From an uncultured Bacteroidales bacterium (GTDB lineage: Bacteria; Bacteroidota; Bacteroidia; Bacteroidales; VadinHA17): DNA of 64,000 nt. A program made the translations under genes and the position numbers. The stretch is from NCBI GenBank assembly GCA_963725785.1, contig CAVRZV010000011.1, positions 165,956 through 229,955 of the forward strand, read 5' to 3'. Numbering within the stretch: the stretch's first letter is position 1; every line of letters begins with the position of its first letter. Below the pieces are notes generated by a model. It made no database searches. It had not been told where the DNA came from and saw only the letters and a program-made list of their open reading frames with translations. This document shows, in pieces, positions 15,640 through 64,000 of the stretch.

Positions 15640-16403
15640 TTAAATGAGACTATTTAATGGGACCCAGCCTTTATTTCCATCTGACAGCCTGATCTCAAAC
15701 CACTCTCCCACTTCATCTTCAACAGTTACCTTTGTACCCTCATGCAATACAAAAAGATCAGTTCCGCTCTTATCCGGTGAACTTTTCCCGCTTACCAAAG
15801 GACTGGAGATTATTGCTTTATGACTATCGTATACCAAAGATTTATTTCTTTGTGCAAATGCAGAGGAAGAAAGTGAAAGGACAATGAAAAAGATTCCTAA
15901 CCAGAATCCGTACACCTTATTGCGATATCTTGATGAATATATATACAGATGACAAAAACAACAGAAAAAGAATAAAAGAGGTCATACTTATTTTTGCCCA
16001 GCTGTTTGTGGAAAAAAAAAGCGAAATGAAATTGTACCATTTTATAAAAAAGAGTTCGGGAATTTCCTGAAAACGGTCAACGATCAGGGTTCTTGCAATC
16101 TGAAGATTATAATTGATATCTTCATCAGCAGGCTTTAGAAGGTAAGCACGTTCGTAGAACAGAATTGCTGAAGGAATATTATTTAGTTTAAAATATGCAT
16201 TACCTATGTTATAATCCAGATTTGCCGACCTGTATCCGGTGTTATATATTTCCGTCCAGACCTGCAATGCCTCTTTATAACTGCCGGCAGTAAAATATGT
16301 TACTCCCTGATAGAATTTGTCCTTATTTGATACTTGTGAAAAAGTTACATTAACTGTGAAAAGATAAAAGCAGGAAAAAAATATATTGTTTTTTCATGTT
16401 CAT
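15640..16403 (-). CDS. batE: BatE-like TPR + SH3 protein, frameshifted
   Basis: Fragments YNIGNAYFK...AILFYERA...DINYNL and LHEGTKVTV...WFEIRLSDGNKGWV; last gene of the bat series. Confidence 0.75.
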
Positions 16404-21075: not shown

Positions 21076-22059
21076 CTACCCTCCTTCCCACTTATTTTTC
21101 TGTCGACTGATTCTGCAACCTGATTTCATTCTCTTTTGTTGCATGAACAAAATTCCATGGAGTTCTGAAAATGTGATTCATTTTCTGTGGCATGCAGGGT
21201 TATACTTTGGCAAATTTTACCAGATCGGCACCGGTCAGAACAGTTTTAAGATCATCGTATGATCCATTCTTTTTAAAACCTGTTTTTACAAGTGCATCAA
21301 GTGTCTCAGCAGTGGTTAATTCAAGAGAGTACACTCTGAACCTGTTTTCCAGATACTGACGTAATATTTCGGTCAGCCTTGTATAGTATTTTTTGATTTC
21401 ACCTTTTTGCCAGAGTTCTTCACTTTTAAGATTTTCGAGTTCCCGGAAAGCAATAACATGAGCCGGATCAGAAGGAATGAATACATTCGTTCAGCGTTTT
21501 CGGATTTTTTATGTTTTCGCATATATCTTATAGCTGCCCAGGTCAAGATGCCCGCTAATAGCAGCGATAAGAAACCAGGGAAGCACCTCTCCGATAGTTA
21601 TAGGTGAGCTATAGGGCTCAATTATATCAAATATTTTTGCTGTGGTATCAGCCGGAGCAATTTTAACTCTCATGACTTCGAGCATGGAATAATCAGAATA
21701 AAATCTTTTAAGTCCACCTGCATTTTTAGCCTCTGCAAAAACAGGCTTAACCTGATAACGTCCTGAATCAAATGATGTTATAAGATATTTTTGTATAATC
21801 TTAATCCTTCCGTTCTGGCTTGCAATGCTGTCGATCTTTGGTCCTGATATAATTTCAATATTTTTACATAGAGTATCTTTAAAGACAGGAAGCGTTAAGC
21901 TTAAGGTCGGATGGCTTATCAACTGTAACCGTATATTTTATCTGATCACCGATATAATATTTTCGTGGAATCAAATGATGAGGTAATTTTTACCTCCTGC
22001 CCGATTGATGAAGAAACAATTGAAATAAACAGAAATATCGAAAATATGAACTTCTTCAT
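21076..22059 (-). CDS. Conserved bat-operon membrane protein, frameshifted
   Basis: ATG at 22059 with a signal-like start; fragment ITSFDSGRY...IFDI..P..IGEVLPW followed by a TM segment; lies between DUF58 and batA. Confidence 0.6.
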
Positions 22060-54644: not shown

Positions 54645-54824
54645 ATGGATAAAACTCAAATATTTATCTATTCAGCTGTAATTGCATTAGTGGCTGTAAG
54701 ACTATATCAAAAATTTGTTAAGAAAGATAAAGGTAAATTGGGATCAGATGCTAAACATGGTTCAGATAACTCGATGTTGTCTTCTTCAAAAGATGATGAT
54801 TATGAACCGTACTCCAAAAAGTGA
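54645..54824 (+). CDS. Small single-TM protein (59 aa), not in the ORF track
   Basis: MDKTQIFIYSAVIALVAVRLYQKFVKKDKGK...SSSKDDDYEPYSKK*; A-rich upstream region. Confidence 0.6.
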   Translation: MDKTQIFIYSAVIALVAVRLYQKFVKKDKGKLGSDAKHGSDNSMLSSSKDDDYEPYSKK

Positions 54825-55132: not shown

Positions 55133-56422
55133 CTATTTTCTGTTTTTCGACACCATATACCGGAATGGATTTATAATCTTCTGGAGAAGTCTGATCCTCT
55201 CGGTAATGATTTCCGCTGTACCCTGCATATTCTGATTAAAATCAAGTTTTTTACCATATAACGTCGAGAGGCCATCAGGCAATTCAATTTCAATAACATA
55301 AGCATCACCGGAAGGAACTAGTGATTTTGATTTTACAGTACCTCTCACAATTCCATATTCGAGGTAAGGATAACCACTCAGTTTGATATTAACCTTTTGA
55401 TTTATTTTCACTTTGCCGGATCGTTGCATTTTAAGATATATTCTTCCCAGATAGCTGCCAGTAGACAGAGGAACTATGCTCACCACCTGTTCATCTTTAA
55501 CAACTGACTGATTGGCACTCCAGAACTTTGTAAATGAAACAATTCCATCAATGGGCGAAATAAGAAGATAAGTATTCTCCCATAAATTTATCTGGGCCTT
55601 GAGGTTTAAAAAAGATTCGCGCAAAACTGAAACAAGCTTTTCCTTTTCATCCACACGGGTTATGCGATAATCCTGCAAAAGCTGTCGTTTTTCTGCTATC
55701 TCAATTGATTTTGCGGCATGGTCAAGCCTGACCTGCTGAAGCTCTATGTTGACTTTTAAAAGTGATTGATGTGATGTCTCAAATTCACTTTCAGGTATAA
55801 CCTTTCCTGCAAAAAGAGAAGAATCTCTCTTGTACTTTTTTGCCTCAAGACGCCGGTTTTCAGAGTAGAGATTTTCTTTTACTTTTAATCTGCTGACATA
55901 TTCCTGGATACTGACTATTTCATTGTTAAGCGAAGCTATTTTATTACCATACAAATCGTTGGTAATATAGCTATTTAAGTCAGACAGGTTTTTAAGAAAA
56001 GAGCCGTAAATTCCCTGTAATTCACCAAGCCCGGCCAGTAGAGGTAACATCCTGGCAGAAAGTAATTCAGGCCACCTTATAGTATCAATTGTCTGTTTAA
56101 GTAAATTAATTTCCTTCATTGACGCTGTTGTTTCCATTACAGCAATTAATTGTCCGGCCTTAACTTCTTCCTTTTCTTTTACAGAGAAATAGTTAATGCG
56201 TCCGGTTACTTTTGTGACAAGATTCACAGGCGGATTAGTTGTTGTAATTTCGACCGGAGCAGGAATAGTATCCGGATACCTGATCAGCCAGGCAAATACA
56301 ATAAACAGAATAAAAAGCAAAAGAAGAGTAGTTGTACCCCATCTGAGAATTCTCCCCGGCGGTCTTCCCATAATTTCTTTTACAGGTTCAGAGTACTTTA
56401 TTTCCGGCTGCTGATTCTTCAT
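55133..56422 (-). CDS. HlyD-family membrane fusion protein of a peptide exporter
   Basis: N-terminal TM, coiled-coil middle, LISPIDGIV, GKVKINQKVNIKLSGYPYLEYG, GTAEIITE. Confidence 0.9.
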   Translation of the reverse strand: MKNQQPEIKYSEPVKEIMGRPPGRILRWGTTTLLLLFILFIVFAWLIRYPDTIPAPVEITTTNPPVNLVTKVTGRINYFSVKEKEEVKAGQLIAVMETTASMKEINLLKQTIDTIRWPELLSARMLPLLAGLGELQGIYGSFLKNLSDLNSYITNDLYGNKIASLNNEIVSIQEYVSRLKVKENLYSENRRLEAKKYKRDSSLFAGKVIPESEFETSHQSLLKVNIELQQVRLDHAAKSIEIAEKRQLLQDYRITRVDEKEKLVSVLRESFLNLKAQINLWENTYLLISPIDGIVSFTKFWSANQSVVKDEQVVSIVPLSTGSYLGRIYLKMQRSGKVKINQKVNIKLSGYPYLEYGIVRGTVKSKSLVPSGDAYVIEIELPDGLSTLYGKKLDFNQNMQGTAEIITERIRLLQKIINPFRYMVSKNRK

Positions 56423-56431
56423 AAATGATCG

Positions 56432-58618
56432 CTAATTACCCAGTTCAAGTTGATTTTTTACCAGATTGTAATATGCTCCCCGCTTCCCGATAAGTGATTC
56501 GTGTGTACCAGTTTCTATTATCCTGCCGCTATCGAGAACAACAATTTTATCAGCATCTCTTACAGTGCTTAGCCTGTGAGCAACAACAATAACTGTTTTG
56601 TCTTTAAAGAATCCTGTAAGGTTTTCAACAATTGCTTTTTCGTTATTTGCATCAAGAGAGTTGGTTGCTTCATCAAAAATTATAATATCCGGATCCTTAT
56701 AGATTACCCTGGCAATAAGCAGTCTTTGTTTCTGTCCTTCGCTCAGACCATGGCCATTTGCTCCTATCCTGGTATTATATCCGAGAGGCAGTGATTCGAT
56801 AAATACTTTTATATTTGCTATATCAACTGCTCTGACCAACTTTTCCTCATTAATATCTTCTGATCCGGGAGCAATATTAGCTGCAATAGTATCGGGGAAA
56901 AGGAAACCATCCTGCATAACCGCACCCACTTTCTCTCTCCAGACTTTCAGGCTGAGATTTGATAAACGAGTATCGCCAATAAGTATTTCACCGGCTACAG
57001 GATGATAAAAACCAAGCAACATTTTTAATAAAGTTGTTTTTCCACTACCGCTCGTACCGACAATTGCAGTTACTTTATTCCCTTCGATAAACAAATCAAT
57101 GTCTTTTAAAGCAAACGGTGACCGGGGGCCCTCATACTGGTAAGAAAGACTATTAATATATATATCCTTTTTGTCGGGAAGTTTTCTTACTTTCATCTCA
57201 GGTTCAGGCTCTTCTTCCTGCAGGTTATGTACTTCAGCCAGCCTGTCGAGACTCATTTTCGCATCCTGCGACATACGAAAAAAGCCAATTATCTGGCTGA
57301 CAGGTACATTCAACTGACCTATAATAAACTGAACTGCAAGCATCATTCCAAGGGTCATATTACCTTTCAGAACTGCTGTTGCCGCAACTATAGTTATCAG
57401 GACGTTGGTGACTTCATTAATGAATGTAGCGCCTGCTGATTGATACTGGATTATGCTCAATCCTCTGATCTTCAATCCAAACAACGTCGCCTGCAGCTTT
57501 TCCCAATCCCATCGCATACTCAATTCACTCTGGGTCAGCTTAATCTCCTGCATTCCGTTTACTATATTAATAAGCTTGTTTCCTGAAACAGACATTTGCT
57601 TAAAACGCTGATGATCCAGAGCAGCCCTCGATTTCATGAAAATTGAAACCCAAAGTATATATAGTACTGACCCCGTCAGAAATAAAGCGAGGATTTTAAT
57701 ACTATATACTGCAAGAACAATTCCAAAAACAACCAGATTGAAAAATGAGAACAAAATGTTCAGACTTGCAGAAGTAAGAAACTCTTCAATCCGGTTGTTA
57801 TCTTCAATCCGTTGAAGGATATCACCTGTCAGCTTGGTATCAAAAAAAGCCACAGGAAGTGACATCAGTTTTTGAAGAAATCCCGATATCACGGCCACAT
57901 TCACTCTTGACCCGATATGTAGAAGCAACCAGCCTCTTATGAATTCAACAGACATCCTCCCAAAAACAAGAGCAAGCTGGGCAAAAAGAATCAGATAAAT
58001 AAATCCTATATCGTTGTTATTAAGGCCAATATCTATAATTGACTGGGTAAGAAAAGGAATAACCAGCTGGATACAGCTTCCAAGAACTAATCCCAGAACC
58101 AATTGGTAGAGATATTTCCGATAGATTCGAAAATATTTAAAAAGGAATTTAAAACCGTTTGTTTTATCCGGTTCATTCTCATTGTCATAAAGTGCCGGAG
58201 TAGGTTCAATTATTAATACCAGGCCTGCCGGTATTCCATCAACAACGGTAGATGCCCAGTTCTGAACAAATTCTTCACGAGTGAATTCCATTAGTCCAAC
58301 AGCAGGATCGGCGATCCAGATTTTGTCGTTTTTGATCTTGTAAACAACTACAAAATGTTTTTGCCTCCAGTGAACTATACATGGAAATGGGACATTCTCA
58401 TTCAAAATCTCAAAATGGACTTTTACTCCTATAGTTCTGAATCCCAAAGAATCAGCAGCTTCTGATAGTCCCAGGAATGAGACTCCCTCTCTTGTTATGT
58501 AACACTTTTTTCTTAGAGATTCAAGTGAAAAATTCATTTTGTAAAACCCTGCTACCATCTTTAGACAGGCAGGTCCGCAATCCATTGCATCAGGCTGTTT
58601 TACAAATGGGAAAGACAT
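56432..58618 (-). CDS. Peptidase-containing ABC transporter (C39 peptidase + TMD + ATPase)
   Basis: QPDAMDCGPACL (Cys), HWRQKHFVV (His), IADPA (Asp); six TM helices; GTSGSGKTT, LSEGQKQR, FDEATNSLD, VAHRLST. Confidence 0.95.
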   Translation of the reverse strand: MSFPFVKQPDAMDCGPACLKMVAGFYKMNFSLESLRKKCYITREGVSFLGLSEAADSLGFRTIGVKVHFEILNENVPFPCIVHWRQKHFVVVYKIKNDKIWIADPAVGLMEFTREEFVQNWASTVVDGIPAGLVLIIEPTPALYDNENEPDKTNGFKFLFKYFRIYRKYLYQLVLGLVLGSCIQLVIPFLTQSIIDIGLNNNDIGFIYLILFAQLALVFGRMSVEFIRGWLLLHIGSRVNVAVISGFLQKLMSLPVAFFDTKLTGDILQRIEDNNRIEEFLTSASLNILFSFFNLVVFGIVLAVYSIKILALFLTGSVLYILWVSIFMKSRAALDHQRFKQMSVSGNKLINIVNGMQEIKLTQSELSMRWDWEKLQATLFGLKIRGLSIIQYQSAGATFINEVTNVLITIVAATAVLKGNMTLGMMLAVQFIIGQLNVPVSQIIGFFRMSQDAKMSLDRLAEVHNLQEEEPEPEMKVRKLPDKKDIYINSLSYQYEGPRSPFALKDIDLFIEGNKVTAIVGTSGSGKTTLLKMLLGFYHPVAGEILIGDTRLSNLSLKVWREKVGAVMQDGFLFPDTIAANIAPGSEDINEEKLVRAVDIANIKVFIESLPLGYNTRIGANGHGLSEGQKQRLLIARVIYKDPDIIIFDEATNSLDANNEKAIVENLTGFFKDKTVIVVAHRLSTVRDADKIVVLDSGRIIETGTHESLIGKRGAYYNLVKNQLELGN

Positions 58619-58777: not shown

Positions 58778-59344
58778 TTGTTTAAAAAAATATCTGATAT
58801 TGACTTACTTGAGGGTGTACGCAATCAGGATGGAAAAGTCCTGAATTGGCTATATGACAATTATTTACAAGCTGTCAAAAAACATGTTCTTAATAACAGC
58901 GGATCTATTGAAGATGTTTCCGATGTTTTTCAGGATACCATAATAATTCTGTATAAACAGATATCAGAGGACCATTTGAGTCTAACAACCGACCTCAAAG
59001 GTTATTTTTTTGGGATCGCACGTAACGTCTGGAGTGCACAGCTTAGAAAAAAACAAAAAACATTTGAACTGGAATTTGAAATTACCGATGAAGCGGAATC
59101 GGAAAACAGATACGACCCTACTCTGGAGAGGATTGTCAGCAGAGTATTTCAAAAACTAAAGCCTGATCAGCAGATGGTGCTGAATTTGTTCTCCGAAGGT
59201 ATTTCCTACGAAGAGATCGCGTCGAAGATGAATCTTAAAAATGAGATCTACGCCAGAAGGAAAAAATATCTGTGCAAAGAGTCTCTTCTTGAGCTTCTGA
59301 AAGAAGATCCTGAATATCAGGAGTATTTGCGTTTTCTAAAATAA
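58778..59344 (+). CDS. ECF (sigma-70 family) sigma factor
   Basis: 188 aa; region 2 (LYDNY...EDVSDVFQDTIIILY...YFFGIARNVW) and region 4 (LKPDQQMVLNLFSEGISYEEIASKM). Confidence 0.9.
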   Translation: MFKKISDIDLLEGVRNQDGKVLNWLYDNYLQAVKKHVLNNSGSIEDVSDVFQDTIIILYKQISEDHLSLTTDLKGYFFGIARNVWSAQLRKKQKTFELEFEITDEAESENRYDPTLERIVSRVFQKLKPDQQMVLNLFSEGISYEEIASKMNLKNEIYARRKKYLCKESLLELLKEDPEYQEYLRFLK

Positions 59345-62300
59345 AATCCGTAAAACAGAAGCAGGATTACAATGGGTACTGTAACAAAAACTTTCCATTT
59401 GGCAGAATAGTACAAAGGCTCATTATTTCCATATACTACCAGCGCAGACCAGAAATAAGGATGTGACCTTAACCTGTCGGCTGTTTTTAAGAAGCCGATT
59501 CTTGCCTTTCTTAGTGATACACTTTTCGAATACCCTCTTTTGAGGTTTTTATAGAACATTTCAACAATCTCAGTACCCGATTTATCTTCGATTTCCCACA
59601 TTGACATCACCACTGACTGACTTCCTGAATAGATAAAGCCTCTGGCAAGACTTAAAATACCTTCACCTGAATTCAACAGTCCTGTTCCGGTATTACACGA
59701 GCTGAGTACCACCATTTTGGCTTTAAGGGGAATTCCATAAATTTCAAATGTCTTGAGATACCCATCTTCAGGAGGATCATTTCCCCGGTCGAAGATCAAT
59801 GTTGAATGCATAGGATCTTTTTCATTTACCAGGGTATGCATAGCCAGATGGATAATATCGTATTTCCCTGATTCATTTTTATATACCGATTCTTTTGCTT
59901 CATTGTTTTCAAAAAGAATTCCCCCTGTTATTCTTGATACATATTCTGCTTCCTGCCGGGCATAGGGTAGATCGTTTAGCTTACCCAATCCTGCCTGTCT
60001 CGACATTAATACTGATTGTATATCAATGGGTTCAGGGTAATTTGGAGCAAATGCAATTAGCTTGTTCCTTCTGCTGGATTCCTTTTTTGACGATTCAGCT
60101 AAAAAAGTAGCAGAGTATGTATACGAAATATCAAAATCGTTCATCATGTAATTCAAATCCCTGTACATAAGGCCTTCTCTCTGAACTGCATCAGTTGGAA
60201 TAGTTTCAAATGGCAGGTATGAAAGAAAACTGTCAGGTGAAATAAATACCTTGTCAGAAATAAGGTATGATCTGACCGGTTCTATCAAAATTTTATATAA
60301 CCTGTATCCGGTTGACTGGAATTCATTAAATTTCTTAGAAGCATTTTCAGCAGGCAATGGCAGCGATAACAGACCCCTGAACCGTTTAACATCATTGAAG
60401 AATGATGTATCGACAGGTATTGCAAGCAACTGCTGATTTTTCCTGTTTACAACAAAAGTATACAATACAGTATCTGAGATCACATAATTAATATAATTTC
60501 CATTGTGGCCAATTACTGCAGGAATATCCTTAAGCCCAATCGTTTGAGTGTTATATTTAATGGCATAATACTCCGGATATTGTTTTTCAAATACAAGAAT
60601 GAGGGAATCTCTTTTTCTTATATCCTCCAGAAGATTTTCCTTCCATTTTGCTATTAATAGCATATTTGGGGTTTCTCCGGCCGATTCTTCGGCTATGCGG
60701 ATATTGAACAGGCTGATTTCACGCTTCAGATCCCTTTCATAGTCTCCTATCTCAGAAGGGATATGAAACTGTGCTGCCTTCAATTCCCGGGTGGAAGTCA
60801 ATAAAACTGCAACTTTGCTTTTTTCCGAATATTCAAATGCCTTTTCTCGGAAATACGGATCAGCAGTTTTATTGTACAGGAGATTAAAATCCCGTATCGC
60901 ATTTAGATACGACTCCCTGTATTTGTCTCCCAATATTAACCTGCTTTCCTCTTCACTGATATTTATTCTGACTCTATCGATCAGCGAAACAATTAATTCT
61001 GAAGTATTTGATGCCGCTTCAAGGATTTTCTGTTCGGGCTTTCTCATATAGATATCCCATAAAATATTATATTTTAGCCTGAGTATCCTGAGAGAAGTTT
61101 GGTCGGGCTTCAAAGATTCAAGTCCGGGATTAACTAAATTTGCTTTTATAGCAATATTATCACTGTCCGGAAAAAGTAATGACTGAATTATTTCCAAAGC
61201 TTTTTCTGATTTGCCTTCTACTTCCAGTGAACGAGAATAACCTATATAAACAGATGTTTTTAAGAATTGGTCATGAACATTTTTATTAACATAATCCATG
61301 CACTCCAGATAACATTCAATTGATTTTCTATTGTCGATCCTGTAATCTCTTAAATAGGCTGCATAATTATTTAAAACTTCAAAATAATCGCGGGGATTAA
61401 GTTCAAATCGGGCTTTTGACCTGACCAGAGCATTTTTCAACAGTTTCTCACCCTTTTTTTCTTCATTATCATTCCCAAGAAAAATACAATAGCTGTTTAT
61501 CAGGTTATAGCTTAATGATGAATTGTTGGAAATAGAAAGTGCTACCCCCTTCTCGTAATACTTACCTGCTTCTTCTTTGAGGCCAAGAGCATAATAAGTT
61601 ATTGCCAGGCCATTCAGTAAATTAATAAAATTGTCATTTTGATCGATGCCGGAAGTTTCATAAATTGATTCAGTTTTGTCGAGGTAGATTTTTGCTTTCG
61701 AGAAATCAGCCAGCCTGTTATAGCATACACCTAAATTGTAGTAGAGATCGGCCATTACAGCAGAAGATACCTTTCCGGGGTTTTTGTTTGCGATTGACAG
61801 CGCAATATTTGAATTATTTAATGCTATTTCATATTTTTTCTGCTCTACATAAGCTGAAATCAGCGACAAATATAAGCTTACCAGATCCGGACTTGATTCA
61901 CTATAAATTACTTTACCTATCTCAACCGATTTCGATGCATATTCCTCAAACTTATTTAAATCTTCGAGATTGGAGTATACAACACTAAGATTATAAAGTG
62001 CCCTGGCATAGCGAATATCAAGTTCATTGTTTTTTTCTTTTATAGAAATGCATCGATTGAGGTACAATATTGCTTCATTATAGCTTTTTATCTTTAAAAA
62101 ATAGATCCCGATTAAATAATAAGACTCCGACAAGATGGTATCACCAATGCTATTGGCACTTATCTTTTGCAATATGTTGTTAACTGTTAGTCTGCCCTGT
62201 GACATATCACCGTTAGTAAGCCTGGTTTTAAGGGATTCATTCAGATATTCGACCTCCTTTGAGGTCTTGTTAATGGAATCATTAAGCGGGCTTATGATCT

Positions 62301-62421
62301 GTTTATTCAGGTCAAAGTTTAAAAAAGATCGTTCGGTACCATAGATAACAGATGTATGAAGAGATCCGGTAGAGATTAAAACATAAAATATAAATCTTAT
62401 AATTCGATTCCTCGATTTCAT
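59317..62421 (-). CDS. TPR + CHAT (caspase-like) protease with C-terminal membrane anchor
   Basis: Multiple TPR-like repeats; ISPDSFLSYLPFETI, IIHLAMH (His), VVLSSCNTG (Cys), SVVMSMWEIED, HPYFWSALV; C-terminal hydrophobic helix followed by RKRK. Confidence 0.9.
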   Translation of the reverse strand: MKSRNRIIRFIFYVLISTGSLHTSVIYGTERSFLNFDLNKQIISPLNDSINKTSKEVEYLNESLKTRLTNGDMSQGRLTVNNILQKISANSIGDTILSESYYLIGIYFLKIKSYNEAILYLNRCISIKEKNNELDIRYARALYNLSVVYSNLEDLNKFEEYASKSVEIGKVIYSESSPDLVSLYLSLISAYVEQKKYEIALNNSNIALSIANKNPGKVSSAVMADLYYNLGVCYNRLADFSKAKIYLDKTESIYETSGIDQNDNFINLLNGLAITYYALGLKEEAGKYYEKGVALSISNNSSLSYNLINSYCIFLGNDNEEKKGEKLLKNALVRSKARFELNPRDYFEVLNNYAAYLRDYRIDNRKSIECYLECMDYVNKNVHDQFLKTSVYIGYSRSLEVEGKSEKALEIIQSLLFPDSDNIAIKANLVNPGLESLKPDQTSLRILRLKYNILWDIYMRKPEQKILEAASNTSELIVSLIDRVRINISEEESRLILGDKYRESYLNAIRDFNLLYNKTADPYFREKAFEYSEKSKVAVLLTSTRELKAAQFHIPSEIGDYERDLKREISLFNIRIAEESAGETPNMLLIAKWKENLLEDIRKRDSLILVFEKQYPEYYAIKYNTQTIGLKDIPAVIGHNGNYINYVISDTVLYTFVVNRKNQQLLAIPVDTSFFNDVKRFRGLLSLPLPAENASKKFNEFQSTGYRLYKILIEPVRSYLISDKVFISPDSFLSYLPFETIPTDAVQREGLMYRDLNYMMNDFDISYTYSATFLAESSKKESSRRNKLIAFAPNYPEPIDIQSVLMSRQAGLGKLNDLPYARQEAEYVSRITGGILFENNEAKESVYKNESGKYDIIHLAMHTLVNEKDPMHSTLIFDRGNDPPEDGYLKTFEIYGIPLKAKMVVLSSCNTGTGLLNSGEGILSLARGFIYSGSQSVVMSMWEIEDKSGTEIVEMFYKNLKRGYSKSVSLRKARIGFLKTADRLRSHPYFWSALVVYGNNEPLYYSAKWKVFVTVPIVILLLFYGFYFRKRKYS

Positions 62422-62470: not shown

Positions 62471-62661
62471 ATAAAACCAAATCATTTTAATTAATTATGA
62501 AAAATGCATAGCTCTCTAATCAATTGATTATGTGTAAGAAAAAAAATATTTTAAAAATATGTGTTTTTTTTGTGTCACAAAATACCATCTTCGGACATGT
62601 AGTAGTGTGTAATCTGAATTAAAGAATGTCAAGACTAAGTACTAAACTAAAAATAACTGAT

Positions 62662-62796
62662 ATGAAAACCGAGAATTCAAAAATGACTATCGACAATTTC
62701 AATAATTTTGCACTTTCAAATGAAGAGATGATTAACATTCGTGGTGGCGAAGGTGATCCGACTATAAAAATAACAAAACCCCCGATAATTATCTGA
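62662..62796 (+). CDS. Double-glycine-leader peptide precursor (44 aa), not in the ORF track
   Basis: MKTENSKMTIDNFNNFALSNEEMINIRGG|EGDPTIKITKPPIII*. The leader matches LSxxE(L/M)xxIxGG exactly. A-rich translation initiation region; hairpin just downstream; C39 exporter in the same cluster. Confidence 0.85.
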   Translation: MKTENSKMTIDNFNNFALSNEEMINIRGGEGDPTIKITKPPIII

Positions 62797-62808: not shown

Positions 62809-62832
62809 TTCCTGTTTTAGCGAAGACAGGAA
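62809..62832 (+). terminator. Hairpin after the peptide gene (probable terminator or stabiliser)
   Basis: TTCCTGTTT-TAGCG-AAGACAGGAA; the T tract that follows is weak. Confidence 0.5.
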
Positions 62833-63032: not shown

Positions 63033-63782
63033 ATGAAAACAGTAGATTTTTCATACTTCATCGAACGGCATATTGCCGGTGAGATGAGTGATGCAGAAAA
63101 ACAGTGGTTCCTTAAGGAACTTGACGGTAACGAGAAACTCAGAAATGAGGTCAATCTCAGGAAGAGAACCGATGAAATTCTCAAGGATCGAAACGTAATG
63201 TCGTTAAGAAATAAACTTTCTGAAATTGAGAAGACCAGAAACGGAGCAATTGAACCTTCGAAAACCTCTAAAAAATCAAATTTCATTAAGTATGCCGCAG
63301 TTATTGCAGGAGTGGCGCTTATTGGAAGCTTAACATTGTTCTCGGGGAAGCATCTTAGTAATGATGAAATCCTGAAACGCTATTACAAAACTTATGAACC
63401 ACCGACAAGTCAGAGGTCAGCAAATATAGAAACTGATGAAGATTTTACTCTGGCTCTTGAGTTTTATAATACACGCGATTATGAGAAGGCTGCAATTCTT
63501 TTCAATAAAGTTCTTGAAAATAAGCCAAACGATATGCAGACTGTTTTACTAAAAGGTGTTTCAAATTTTGAAGAACAAAAATATCCGGAAGCCAAACAAT
63601 CATTTAATAAGGTGATAGACAACAAAGACAATCTTTATATTGATCAGGCTCAATGGTATCTGTCCTTATGTTATCTGAATACCAATGAAAATGACAAAGC
63701 TATACAACTATTGAAAGTAATTGTAAAAGATAATGGCAATTATAAAGACGAGGCAAACAAGATAATCAGGGAATTAAAATAA
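63033..63782 (+). CDS. Anti-sigma-like membrane protein: N-terminal helical domain, one TM, C-terminal TPRs
   Basis: IERHIAGEMSDAEKQWFLKELDGNEKLRNEV (zinc-free anti-sigma-like), TM FIKYAAVIAGVALIGSLTLF, TPR motifs ALEFYNTRDYEKAA and QAQWYLSLCYL. Confidence 0.72.
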   Translation: MKTVDFSYFIERHIAGEMSDAEKQWFLKELDGNEKLRNEVNLRKRTDEILKDRNVMSLRNKLSEIEKTRNGAIEPSKTSKKSNFIKYAAVIAGVALIGSLTLFSGKHLSNDEILKRYYKTYEPPTSQRSANIETDEDFTLALEFYNTRDYEKAAILFNKVLENKPNDMQTVLLKGVSNFEEQKYPEAKQSFNKVIDNKDNLYIDQAQWYLSLCYLNTNENDKAIQLLKVIVKDNGNYKDEANKIIRELK

Positions 63783-63839: not shown

Positions 63840-64000
63840 ATGACGAGCGAGATGGAGAATGATTCGAATATATCGAGGAATGATATGGTAAATTGCCCGA
63901 CAGTTTTAATTGGGATCTCTCATGAGATGAGAACTCACATGAATGCAATTGTAGCATTTTCATTTCTCATGAAAGATAATGGTTGCAACGATTCGGACCG
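63840..64000 (+). CDS. Start of a HisKA-domain (histidine kinase-like) protein, truncated by the window end
   Basis: ATG at 63840 gives MTSEMENDS...VLIGISHEMRTHMNAIVAFSFLM, matching the H-box pattern SHE(I/M)RTPMNAI. Confidence 0.65.
   Translation, partial: MTSEMENDSNISRNDMVNCPTVLIGISHEMRTHMNAIVAFSFLMKDNGCNDSD

Follow-up and report, generated by a model that had tools for sequence, protein, structure and literature searches.

We analysed a stretch of 64,000 nucleotides (hereafter 'the window') from the genome of an uncultured Bacteroidales bacterium of the lineage VadinHA17 (GenBank assembly GCA_963725785.1, contig CAVRZV010000011.1, positions 165,956–229,955 of the forward strand), focusing on a short gene close to its end. 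This gene, at 62662–62796 on the plus strand, encodes the precursor of a small peptide with a double-glycine (GG) leader. It belongs to a seven-gene set that otherwise consists of a Peptidase-C39 ATP-binding cassette (ABC) exporter, an HlyD-family adaptor, a sigma factor of the extracytoplasmic function (ECF) type, a protease combining tetratricopeptide repeats (TPRs) with a caspase-like CHAT domain, a TPR-bearing anti-sigma-like protein, and a histidine kinase without a sensor region. A scan of named genomes yielded 80 corresponding loci from metagenome-assembled genomes (MAGs), recovered from fens, peat, lake sediment and the like, in which the order of the set is identical (kinase, anti-sigma, peptide / CHAT, sigma / exporter, HlyD).

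The peptide gene, its product and its promoter

The open reading frame (ORF) runs from an ATG at 62662–62664 to a TGA at 62794–62796 (44 codons and a stop) and translates as MKTENSKMTIDNFNNFALSNEEMINIRGGEGDPTIKITKPPIII, which divides into the leader MKTENSKMTIDNFNNFALSNEEMINIRGG and the core EGDPTIKITKPPIII. A 56-residue version beginning at an in-frame ATG at 62626 was dropped and the 44-residue start is supported, because the homologues all open with MKT or MKN at the position matching 62662. A GG-leader mini-ORF adjoins the CHAT gene in 28 of 30 fetched loci of the genus, the two exceptions being cut by contig ends, and the peptide gene is present in 70 of the 80 named-MAG loci, the remaining ones ending before its site except for a single locus (L060, described below). 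In total, about 100 related loci of uncultured Bacteroidales carry the gene at the same place, a recurrence that greatly exceeds what chance would produce. Codon position 3 is about twice as variable as positions 1 and 2 in the alignment of these peptide genes, and the uncorrected ratio of nonsynonymous to synonymous differences (pN/pS) comes to 0.41 across the leader and 0.55 across the core. Relatives found by a profile search of 5.8 billion proteins fall into at least 713 clusters, every one labelled 'hypothetical protein' and without Pfam domains; no NCBIfam model scored at or above its cut-off for any of 29 members of the peptide family, and no Rfam family matched the peptide region.

Taken together, the recurrence of the locus, the codon-position bias, the pN/pS values, the 713 unnamed clusters and the lack of an NCBIfam or Rfam match show that the ORF is a real gene: protein-coding, common and unannotated. 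Its product is very probably a genuine exported GG peptide. A preliminary description of the window, made from its letters alone, had proposed a 44-residue GG precursor at 62662–62796, to be abandoned if relatives did not conserve it. Frame, leader and recurrence across loci all agree with that proposal, and both the ORF and its leader are kept in the roughly 100 loci.

The leader (29 residues; 62662–62748, plus strand) was delimited by the GG pattern and by the alignment of homologues. It ends in LSNEEMINIRGG, the last residues being RGG, and has GG at −2/−1, I at −4, M at −7, E at −8 and −9, and L at −12, which confirms the perfect double-glycine consensus read there in the preliminary description; at a secondary position of the GG-leader pattern, −15, it departs from that pattern with an Asn. 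In length and ending it falls within the range for such leaders (about 15–30 residues, ending in GG, GA or GS). All 29 aligned homologues retain G28 and G29, and L18, E22 and M23 are invariant or nearly so. The C39 exporter expected in cis is also in place: as read from the sequence, the C39 domain of the neighbouring exporter has Q8, C14, H83 and D104, the complete Gln/Cys/His/Asp set of catalytic residues of active double-glycine peptidases.

The core, which with the stop codon occupies 62749–62796 (plus strand), has 15 residues and a predicted mass of 1633.97 Da, with no Cys and no aromatic residue, just as first described. Right-aligned, 70 unique cores of 12–18 residues give the consensus [ED]-P-I-[IVL]-[KL]-P-x-x-P-P-[VI]-[KIR]-I-COOH. 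Pro stands at −5 in 69 of the 70, the C-terminal residue is Ile in 63, Leu in six and Val in one, and the stop codon nearly always follows three residues beyond PP. Of the residues in these cores, 26% are Pro and 17.5% Ile, the mean net charge is −0.8, and a single Cys and two aromatic residues occur among all of them. The fixed Pro, the Ile/Leu/Val end, the stop after PP and the charge would fit a ligand.

Two further ideas about the core had been put forward. The first, that it offers no handles for lanthipeptide or thioether chemistry, holds for a Cys-free core in a conserved neighbourhood without a modifying enzyme. The second, that cores are hypervariable and co-vary with the TPR region of the CHAT protein, stands only in part. 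Because the proline framework is fixed, as is the C-terminal Ile, the cores are not hypervariable; their rate of divergence is nonetheless close to that of the TPR region (mean p-distance 0.54 for the core and 0.59 for the CHAT TPR region, the fastest part of the locus, with 0.19–0.24 for the exporter), and a correlation with TPR domains is indeed present (see below).

The number of peptide genes differs in a few loci. One (L077:8824–9748; MAG CAVSZL010000013.1) holds five identical copies in tandem with a period of 196 nt and one promoter ahead of them, and another (L071) holds two tandem copies. The one true deletion was found in L060:9700–10000 (MAG PLNT01000018.1), in which the peptide gene is lost and the promoter is retained directly before the anti-sigma gene; the kinase gene was likewise not found there, and this locus may represent a natural non-producer.

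An ECF-type promoter candidate lies upstream of the peptide gene (62573–62601, plus strand), with TGTCAC at 62573–62578, a 15-nt spacer, GACATGTA at 62594–62601 and a T-run just upstream. A GT[CA]AC box followed by a spaced second box is characteristic of the ECF style. When 29 upstream regions were aligned, every orthologue had a T-run, then TGTCACAAA, a variable spacer and cGACATGTA; the frame from TGTCAC to GACATG is constant at 27 nt and lies about 65–75 nt ahead of the ATG, the boxes being invariant and the spacer varying. The preliminary description of the adjoining segment had taken GTAGTAG as the −10 box, which the alignment replaces with GACATGTA, 15 nt past TGTCAC. The genome (3.85 Mb) contains the strict motif TGTCAC-N15-GACATG just once; the sequence coming nearest to it, on contig C12, is situated within an ORF and was set aside as probably due to chance. 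In about 70 MAG loci, the motif is found a single time each, ahead of the first peptide gene, with two chance matches elsewhere in the 20-kb flanks.

Promoter and start codon are separated by a 5' untranslated leader (62602–62661, plus strand), in which relatives carry a conserved box with the consensus AATTACCCTGAAT.AGTA (29 upstream regions). Just past the stop codon, a hairpin with a T-rich tail (62809–62832, plus strand) is a candidate terminator or attenuator, and a CCTG...CAGG stem is found 12–20 nt past the stop in most relatives. Because of this hairpin, and because the promoter of L060 stands directly before the anti-sigma gene, the arrangement indicates that the peptide, anti-sigma and kinase genes are probably one operon, with possible attenuation after the peptide.

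Neighbouring genes, paralogous sets and distribution

The two export genes are encoded on the minus strand: an HlyD-family membrane-fusion adaptor of 429 residues (55133–56422; TIGR01843 E = 7e-23, HlyD_3) and the Peptidase-C39 ABC exporter (PCAT) of 728 residues (56432–58618; Peptidase_C39 E = 1.4e-38, ABC_membrane, ABC_tran). The exporter is 72–91% identical between loci and lies 4 kb from the peptide gene in every one of them. The ECF-type factor of the sigma-70 family (188 residues; 58778–59344, plus strand) matches TIGR02937 with 55 bits (cut-off 42.9), as well as Sigma70_r2 and r4_2.

The TPR-CHAT protease (1034 residues; 59317–62421, minus strand) is divergent from the peptide gene and matches CHAT (E = 1.6e-51) together with TPR families of Pfam. 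It has a signal-like N-terminal segment and a C-terminal transmembrane (TM) helix followed by RKRK, from which we infer that its body is located outside the cytoplasm, as a membrane-tethered periplasmic protein. Orthologues with 39–72% identity are encoded in 35 of 37 genomes of the genus, and H858/H862 and C909 are invariant. An AlphaFold (AF2) model has a mean pLDDT of 72.6, with the TPRs predicted at high confidence. Its best Protein Data Bank (PDB) matches in a Foldseek search are separase, Craspase Csx29 (7zoq_A, 8d9f_A; TMt 0.49–0.55) and DdvA (8rw5, 8rot), and sequence comparison likens the TPR part to TPRs that bind peptides, namely those of kinesin light chain (KLC), LGN and RapJ.

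The anti-sigma-like protein (249 residues; 63033–63782, plus strand) consists of an N-terminal helical domain, one TM helix and a periplasmic TPR domain that matches TPR families, and its gene is syntenic in all loci. Within it, the stretch encoded at 63300–63420 (residues ~105–130, from the TM helix to the TPRs) is strongly conserved (…YYKxYEPxTxQRSA…), and could be a protease cut site or a docking site. The anti-sigma gene is followed by the gene for a HisKA/HATPase-type kinase of 261 residues without a sensor or TM region, which begins at 63840 on the plus strand and continues past the end of the window at 64000 (C11:229795–230580 in its own genome). This gene is syntenic in most loci, and no response regulator gene is adjacent to it. 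The H-box of the kinase reads SHEMRTHMN here and SHE[MI]RTPLN in relatives from other families.

At the other end of the set, convergent to HlyD, an ORF of 59 residues with one TM helix and a charged tail (54645–54824, plus strand) was weighed as a candidate immunity gene. At the same place in 50 loci it is conserved (38–68% identity), as are unrelated housekeeping genes beyond it, and its conservation is uninformative because the genus-wide synteny takes in these housekeeping genes too. Elsewhere in the genome, C7:17418–22041 holds a classical bacteriocin-type locus with HlyD, a PCAT split into two ORFs (509 and 164 residues, possibly by a frameshift), a GG peptide gene at 21265–21477 with a hydrophobic core of 45 residues, and an adjoining TM protein of 170 residues that is possibly an immunity protein.

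A second, paralogous set is present in the same genome at C10:10353–16785, comprising a kinase, a sigma factor, a TPR anti-sigma protein, a CHAT protein and a GG peptide. The CHAT gene of this set is N-terminally truncated and has no TPR half, of which there are fragments only at 15888–16344, and the peptide core, EGEGDGGCPVIIIPNQKCEKNSTIFFKVKEHF, extends about 15 residues beyond the end of its relatives (…IIIPKF); this copy may be decaying. All 13 genus loci of the paralogous type that were checked have their own GG peptide (with cores such as DGNGSEPIIIIPKF and DGLDPIIIIPPPPPPPQT), CHAT protein, sigma factor, anti-sigma protein and kinase; no exporter gene was found in these 13 loci or in C10. 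The paralogous peptides are preceded by a different conserved ECF-type promoter, GGTAACA-N16-GATATAAC, with the second box (c)GATAtAAC.

The same design recurs in other families of the order, including loci L148 and L203. Profile matches in those families are GG peptides with short, acidic, Pro/Gly-rich cores, which adjoin genes for signal-bearing TPR or TPR-CHAT proteins, anti-sigma-like proteins, kinases and, in some cases, the exporter. A compact order is found in GCA_942493265.1 (complete, 5.38 Mb), in which a sigma factor, a TPR protein and a TPR-CHAT protein stand next to a GG peptide of 45 residues, a PCAT and an adaptor. Across the phylum, TPR-CHAT homologues are encoded in 135 of 401 genomes. 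No credible GG peptide was found in 20 TPR-CHAT loci from other orders and classes, two of which have adjacent sigma and anti-sigma genes; these peptide-less loci rule out a peptide link as a general TPR-CHAT trait. On the genomes compared here, the link is a lineage-specific elaboration.

Possible roles of the peptide

The variation of leader and core was compared with that of their possible partners by partial Mantel tests on distance matrices from 56 complete loci, taking the last 13 residues as the core and using the exporter body, HlyD, the sigma factor and the cytoplasmic part of the anti-sigma protein as controls. The core correlates with the CHAT TPR region (partial r = 0.25, p = 0.001) and with the periplasmic TPR domain of the anti-sigma protein (partial r = 0.26, p = 0.001), and not significantly with the C39 domain (partial r = −0.01). 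The leader, in turn, correlates with the C39 domain (partial r = 0.185, p = 0.005), its partial r with either TPR domain being about 0 or below and not significant. Such a split would be expected if the exporter recognised the leader and the periplasmic TPR proteins recognised the mature peptide, which it suggests; we take the co-variation as suggestive because a Mantel test on related sequences is not tree-aware and overstates significance, and because the effect sizes are modest.

We assign a probability of roughly one half (about 0.5) to the reading that the unmodified exported peptide is the ligand of a protease/anti-sigma switch that in turn induces the peptide. According to this model, the exporter would cut after Gly29 and release EGDPTIKITKPPIII into the periplasm or beyond. 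The unmodified peptide would then bind, through its proline-rich body and free Ile C-terminus, the periplasmic TPRs of either the CHAT protease or the anti-sigma protein, or those of both proteins. Binding would cause the CHAT protease to make a site-1 cut in the periplasmic domain of the anti-sigma protein, in the manner of DegS acting on RseA when it meets the C-termini of outer-membrane proteins, and the freed sigma factor would transcribe the peptide/anti-sigma/kinase operon from TGTCAC-N15-GACATG. The peptide would thereby provide positive feedback, newly made anti-sigma protein the reset, and the kinase the output. In favour of the model stand the fixed gene set and its recurrence in paralogous and distant forms, the invariant promoter, the multiple gene copies of L077 and L071, the co-variation, the likeness of the protease to peptide-binding TPRs and to the separase/Craspase/DdvA fold class, and the precedents of DdvA and Craspase for sigma-factor control by TPR-CHAT proteins. 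The unmodified pheromone favoured in the preliminary description is thus the leading, though still hypothetical, reading.

Several points weigh against this ligand model, in addition to the limits of the Mantel tests. Correlation with the core was likewise seen for the sigma factor and HlyD prior to their use as controls. The genes flanking the set are housekeeping genes that are likewise syntenic inside the genus, and synteny inside the genus is weak evidence by itself because these flanks share it; the peptide link is nevertheless functional, beyond inherited gene order, given its recurrence in paralogous sets and in sets whose genes are shuffled. Every carrier found is an uncultured Bacteroidales MAG. 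The active-site loops of the TPR-CHAT model have low confidence, the protein encoded at 63033–63782 has no zf-HC2 match and owes its anti-sigma label to architecture only, and the pairing of the locus sigma factor with TGTCAC-N15-GACATG is inferred from their co-occurrence. Because there is no outer-membrane exit component within the locus, the peptide may act in the periplasm of its producer or between cells.

Expression data count on both sides. RNA of this strain was found in none of the runs searched, which included two weak holders of its DNA only and two metatranscriptomes with sequence of relatives. Contigs of a peat metatranscriptome, about 90% identical to the window, span 62659–62751 and the start of the anti-sigma gene, and their unaligned ends continue into the cores of relatives (e.g. 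...GEGDVIVKI and ...DAPPILPPPP). Genes of relatives are hence present in RNA libraries, and this lends weak support to their expression because the contigs are assembled and DNA carry-over is possible.

The peptide could also inhibit the protease rather than activate it. It would then be a pseudosubstrate or securin-like inhibitor, or a decoy substrate, of the CHAT protease, exerting negative feedback and, as it is induced along with new anti-sigma protein, serving to switch the system off. Separase-type proteases are held by pseudosubstrates, the peptide and anti-sigma genes share an operon and a promoter, the conserved [ED]-P boundary is a possible recognition site, and the co-variation of the core with TPR-CHAT suits any direct binding. 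The sequence data are, in fact, equal for inhibitor and activator. For a damper acting purely inside the cell, however, the cost of an ATP-driven exporter of its own and of as many as five gene copies would be high, and we regard inhibition as rather unlikely.

We regard as unlikely an antimicrobial role of the peptide, as an unmodified bacteriocin or as a proline-rich antimicrobial peptide (PrAMP), in which the sigma factor, anti-sigma and CHAT proteins would do no more than regulate its production upon another envelope signal. The combination of a GG leader, a PCAT and an HlyD adaptor is classic for bacteriocin export, multi-copy precursor genes are also known from bacteriocin loci, and proline-rich peptides of 15–20 residues can be antimicrobial. 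Yet class II cores usually comprise 25–60 residues and are cationic or amphiphilic/hydrophobic, whereas the cores considered here have 12–18 residues and a mean charge of −0.8, and are neither Arg-rich nor amphipathic. Immunity-type genes are absent from the conserved set and from its distant versions, among them the compact locus L203. Moreover, core variation goes along with that of the periplasmic TPR domains encoded beside it, a relation that would not be required of a toxin directed against other cells, and the typical bacteriocin-type locus of the same genome (on C7) looks quite different. The opinion of the preliminary description that the core is unlike a bacteriocin was based on its shortness, and it is strengthened by the partners, which are regulators and not immunity proteins, and by the contrast with the C7 locus.

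A third alternative, which we consider quite improbable, is that the peptide is a precursor of the class of peptides that are made on ribosomes and modified after translation (RiPPs) and has another role, with either an unlinked gene supplying the enzyme that modifies its core, or the CHAT protein processing, cyclising or transferring that core as a transpeptidase. Some clan-CD peptidases do act as transpeptidases, and the leader weakly resembles the Bacteroidetes RiPP leaders TIGR04149 and PF14406. The TIGR04149 score is, however, 12.7 against a cut-off of 25 bits, the best of 29 homologues having E = 0.02; across about 100 loci, the conserved set is free of tailoring genes, whether for radical-SAM, lanthipeptide, ATP-grasp or other enzymes, and the core has no Cys and scarcely any Ser or Thr. 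The idea that the ORF is untranslated, and that what is conserved serves the anti-sigma gene as promoter and leader RNA, finds its example in L060, in which the retained promoter would directly drive that gene without the ORF, but it is extremely improbable in view of the excess of third-position changes, pN/pS below 1, the conserved start, GG motif and stop position, tandem duplication in whole ORF units and no Rfam match.

Relation to known systems and significance

The ligand model has its nearest functional parallel in the GG pheromones of Gram-positive bacteria (ComC/CSP–ComAB, BlpC–BlpAB, PlnA), with which the system shares a short unmodified core, a GG leader, C39 export, a precursor gene within a regulatory locus and, probably, self-induction. 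It differs from them in its host, a diderm member of the Bacteroidales, and in its presumed sensor, in which a periplasmic TPR-CHAT protein, a TPR anti-sigma protein and an ECF sigma factor take the place of the membrane histidine kinase of a two-component system. The core is proline-rich, slightly acidic and fixed in its C-terminal Ile, and the only sequence in common with the Gram-positive pheromones is the generic leader.

As regards the sensor, E. coli DegS offers a working analogy without homology. DegS is allosterically activated by free peptide C-termini, whereupon it cuts the periplasmic domain of RseA and releases an ECF sigma factor (sigma-E). It is a PDZ-serine protease, whereas the enzyme described here is a TPR-bearing caspase-like cysteine protease, and its activators are misfolded porins, whereas the activator here would be a dedicated gene product.

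The DdvA/DdvS system of Myxococcus xanthus shares the fold class. DdvA is a transmembrane anti-sigma protein with a periplasmic TPR-CHAT part, for which the activating signal is unknown, a link to phage defence has been described and a CHAT-mediated site-1 cut has been proposed (PMC11506125). Common to both systems are an ECF sigma factor under a membrane anti-sigma protein and a periplasmic TPR-CHAT protein with a His/Cys dyad. DdvA, however, fuses what are separate genes in all loci considered here (59317–62421 for TPR-CHAT and 63033–63782 for the anti-sigma-like protein). In the present system, the CHAT protein has its own C-terminal anchor and the anti-sigma protein has TPRs only; a dedicated exported peptide and exporter accompany them, whereas DdvA is not linked to a peptide gene.

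The closest structural matches come from the type III-E CRISPR Craspase, in which the TPR-CHAT protein Csx29 cleaves Csx30, leading to release of a sigma factor (PMC10028731). A regulated TPR-CHAT cut that frees an ECF-like sigma factor would be the shared principle; Craspase, in contrast, is cytoplasmic and RNA-activated and lacks an exported peptide. The likeness to the RiPP precursors of TIGR04149 and PF14406 is confined to a Bacteroidota-type GG leader with weak hidden Markov model matches below cut-off, and the locus has neither a Cys-rich core nor a radical-SAM/SPASM maturase.

For a GG-leader exported peptide, the core family, sensor set and promoter described here are without precedent. 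A full-text search of the literature found no description of the peptide family or of a peptide-linked TPR-CHAT/sigma module; apparent matches to 'CHAT' in PMC10352776 proved to be an author name. We tentatively raise the possibility, which we hold to be less than even, that this is the first peptide autoinducer circuit described in Bacteroidota, consisting of an unmodified, proline-rich, PCAT-exported peptide of 12–18 residues with a free C-terminus read by periplasmic TPRs, a membrane-tethered CHAT site-1 protease that the peptide would switch on allosterically to cut the TPR anti-sigma protein, and an ECF sigma factor with a single strong promoter, that of the peptide/anti-sigma/kinase operon. 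Two orthogonal copies of the circuit would then be present in one genome, with different peptide families and promoters and perhaps one exporter in common.

To our knowledge, GG-leader pheromone signalling is considered a Gram-positive trait, and no activator is known for those TPR-CHAT proteases that do not belong to CRISPR systems. If the peptide is a signal, it would represent a kind of peptide signalling that has not yet been described in Gram-negative bacteria. The locus supplies a synthesisable candidate ligand of 15 residues along with a candidate protease, substrate and promoter and, because all of these are defined, the idea can be tested in vitro or with a heterologous reporter without culture of the host. 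Should the peptide merely be a regulated effector, a large unannotated peptide family and its promoter would still have been defined. The family is abundant in Bacteroidales of peat, fen and lake sediment and, if its members are signals, such signalling would be widespread and overlooked in carbon-rich anoxic soils.

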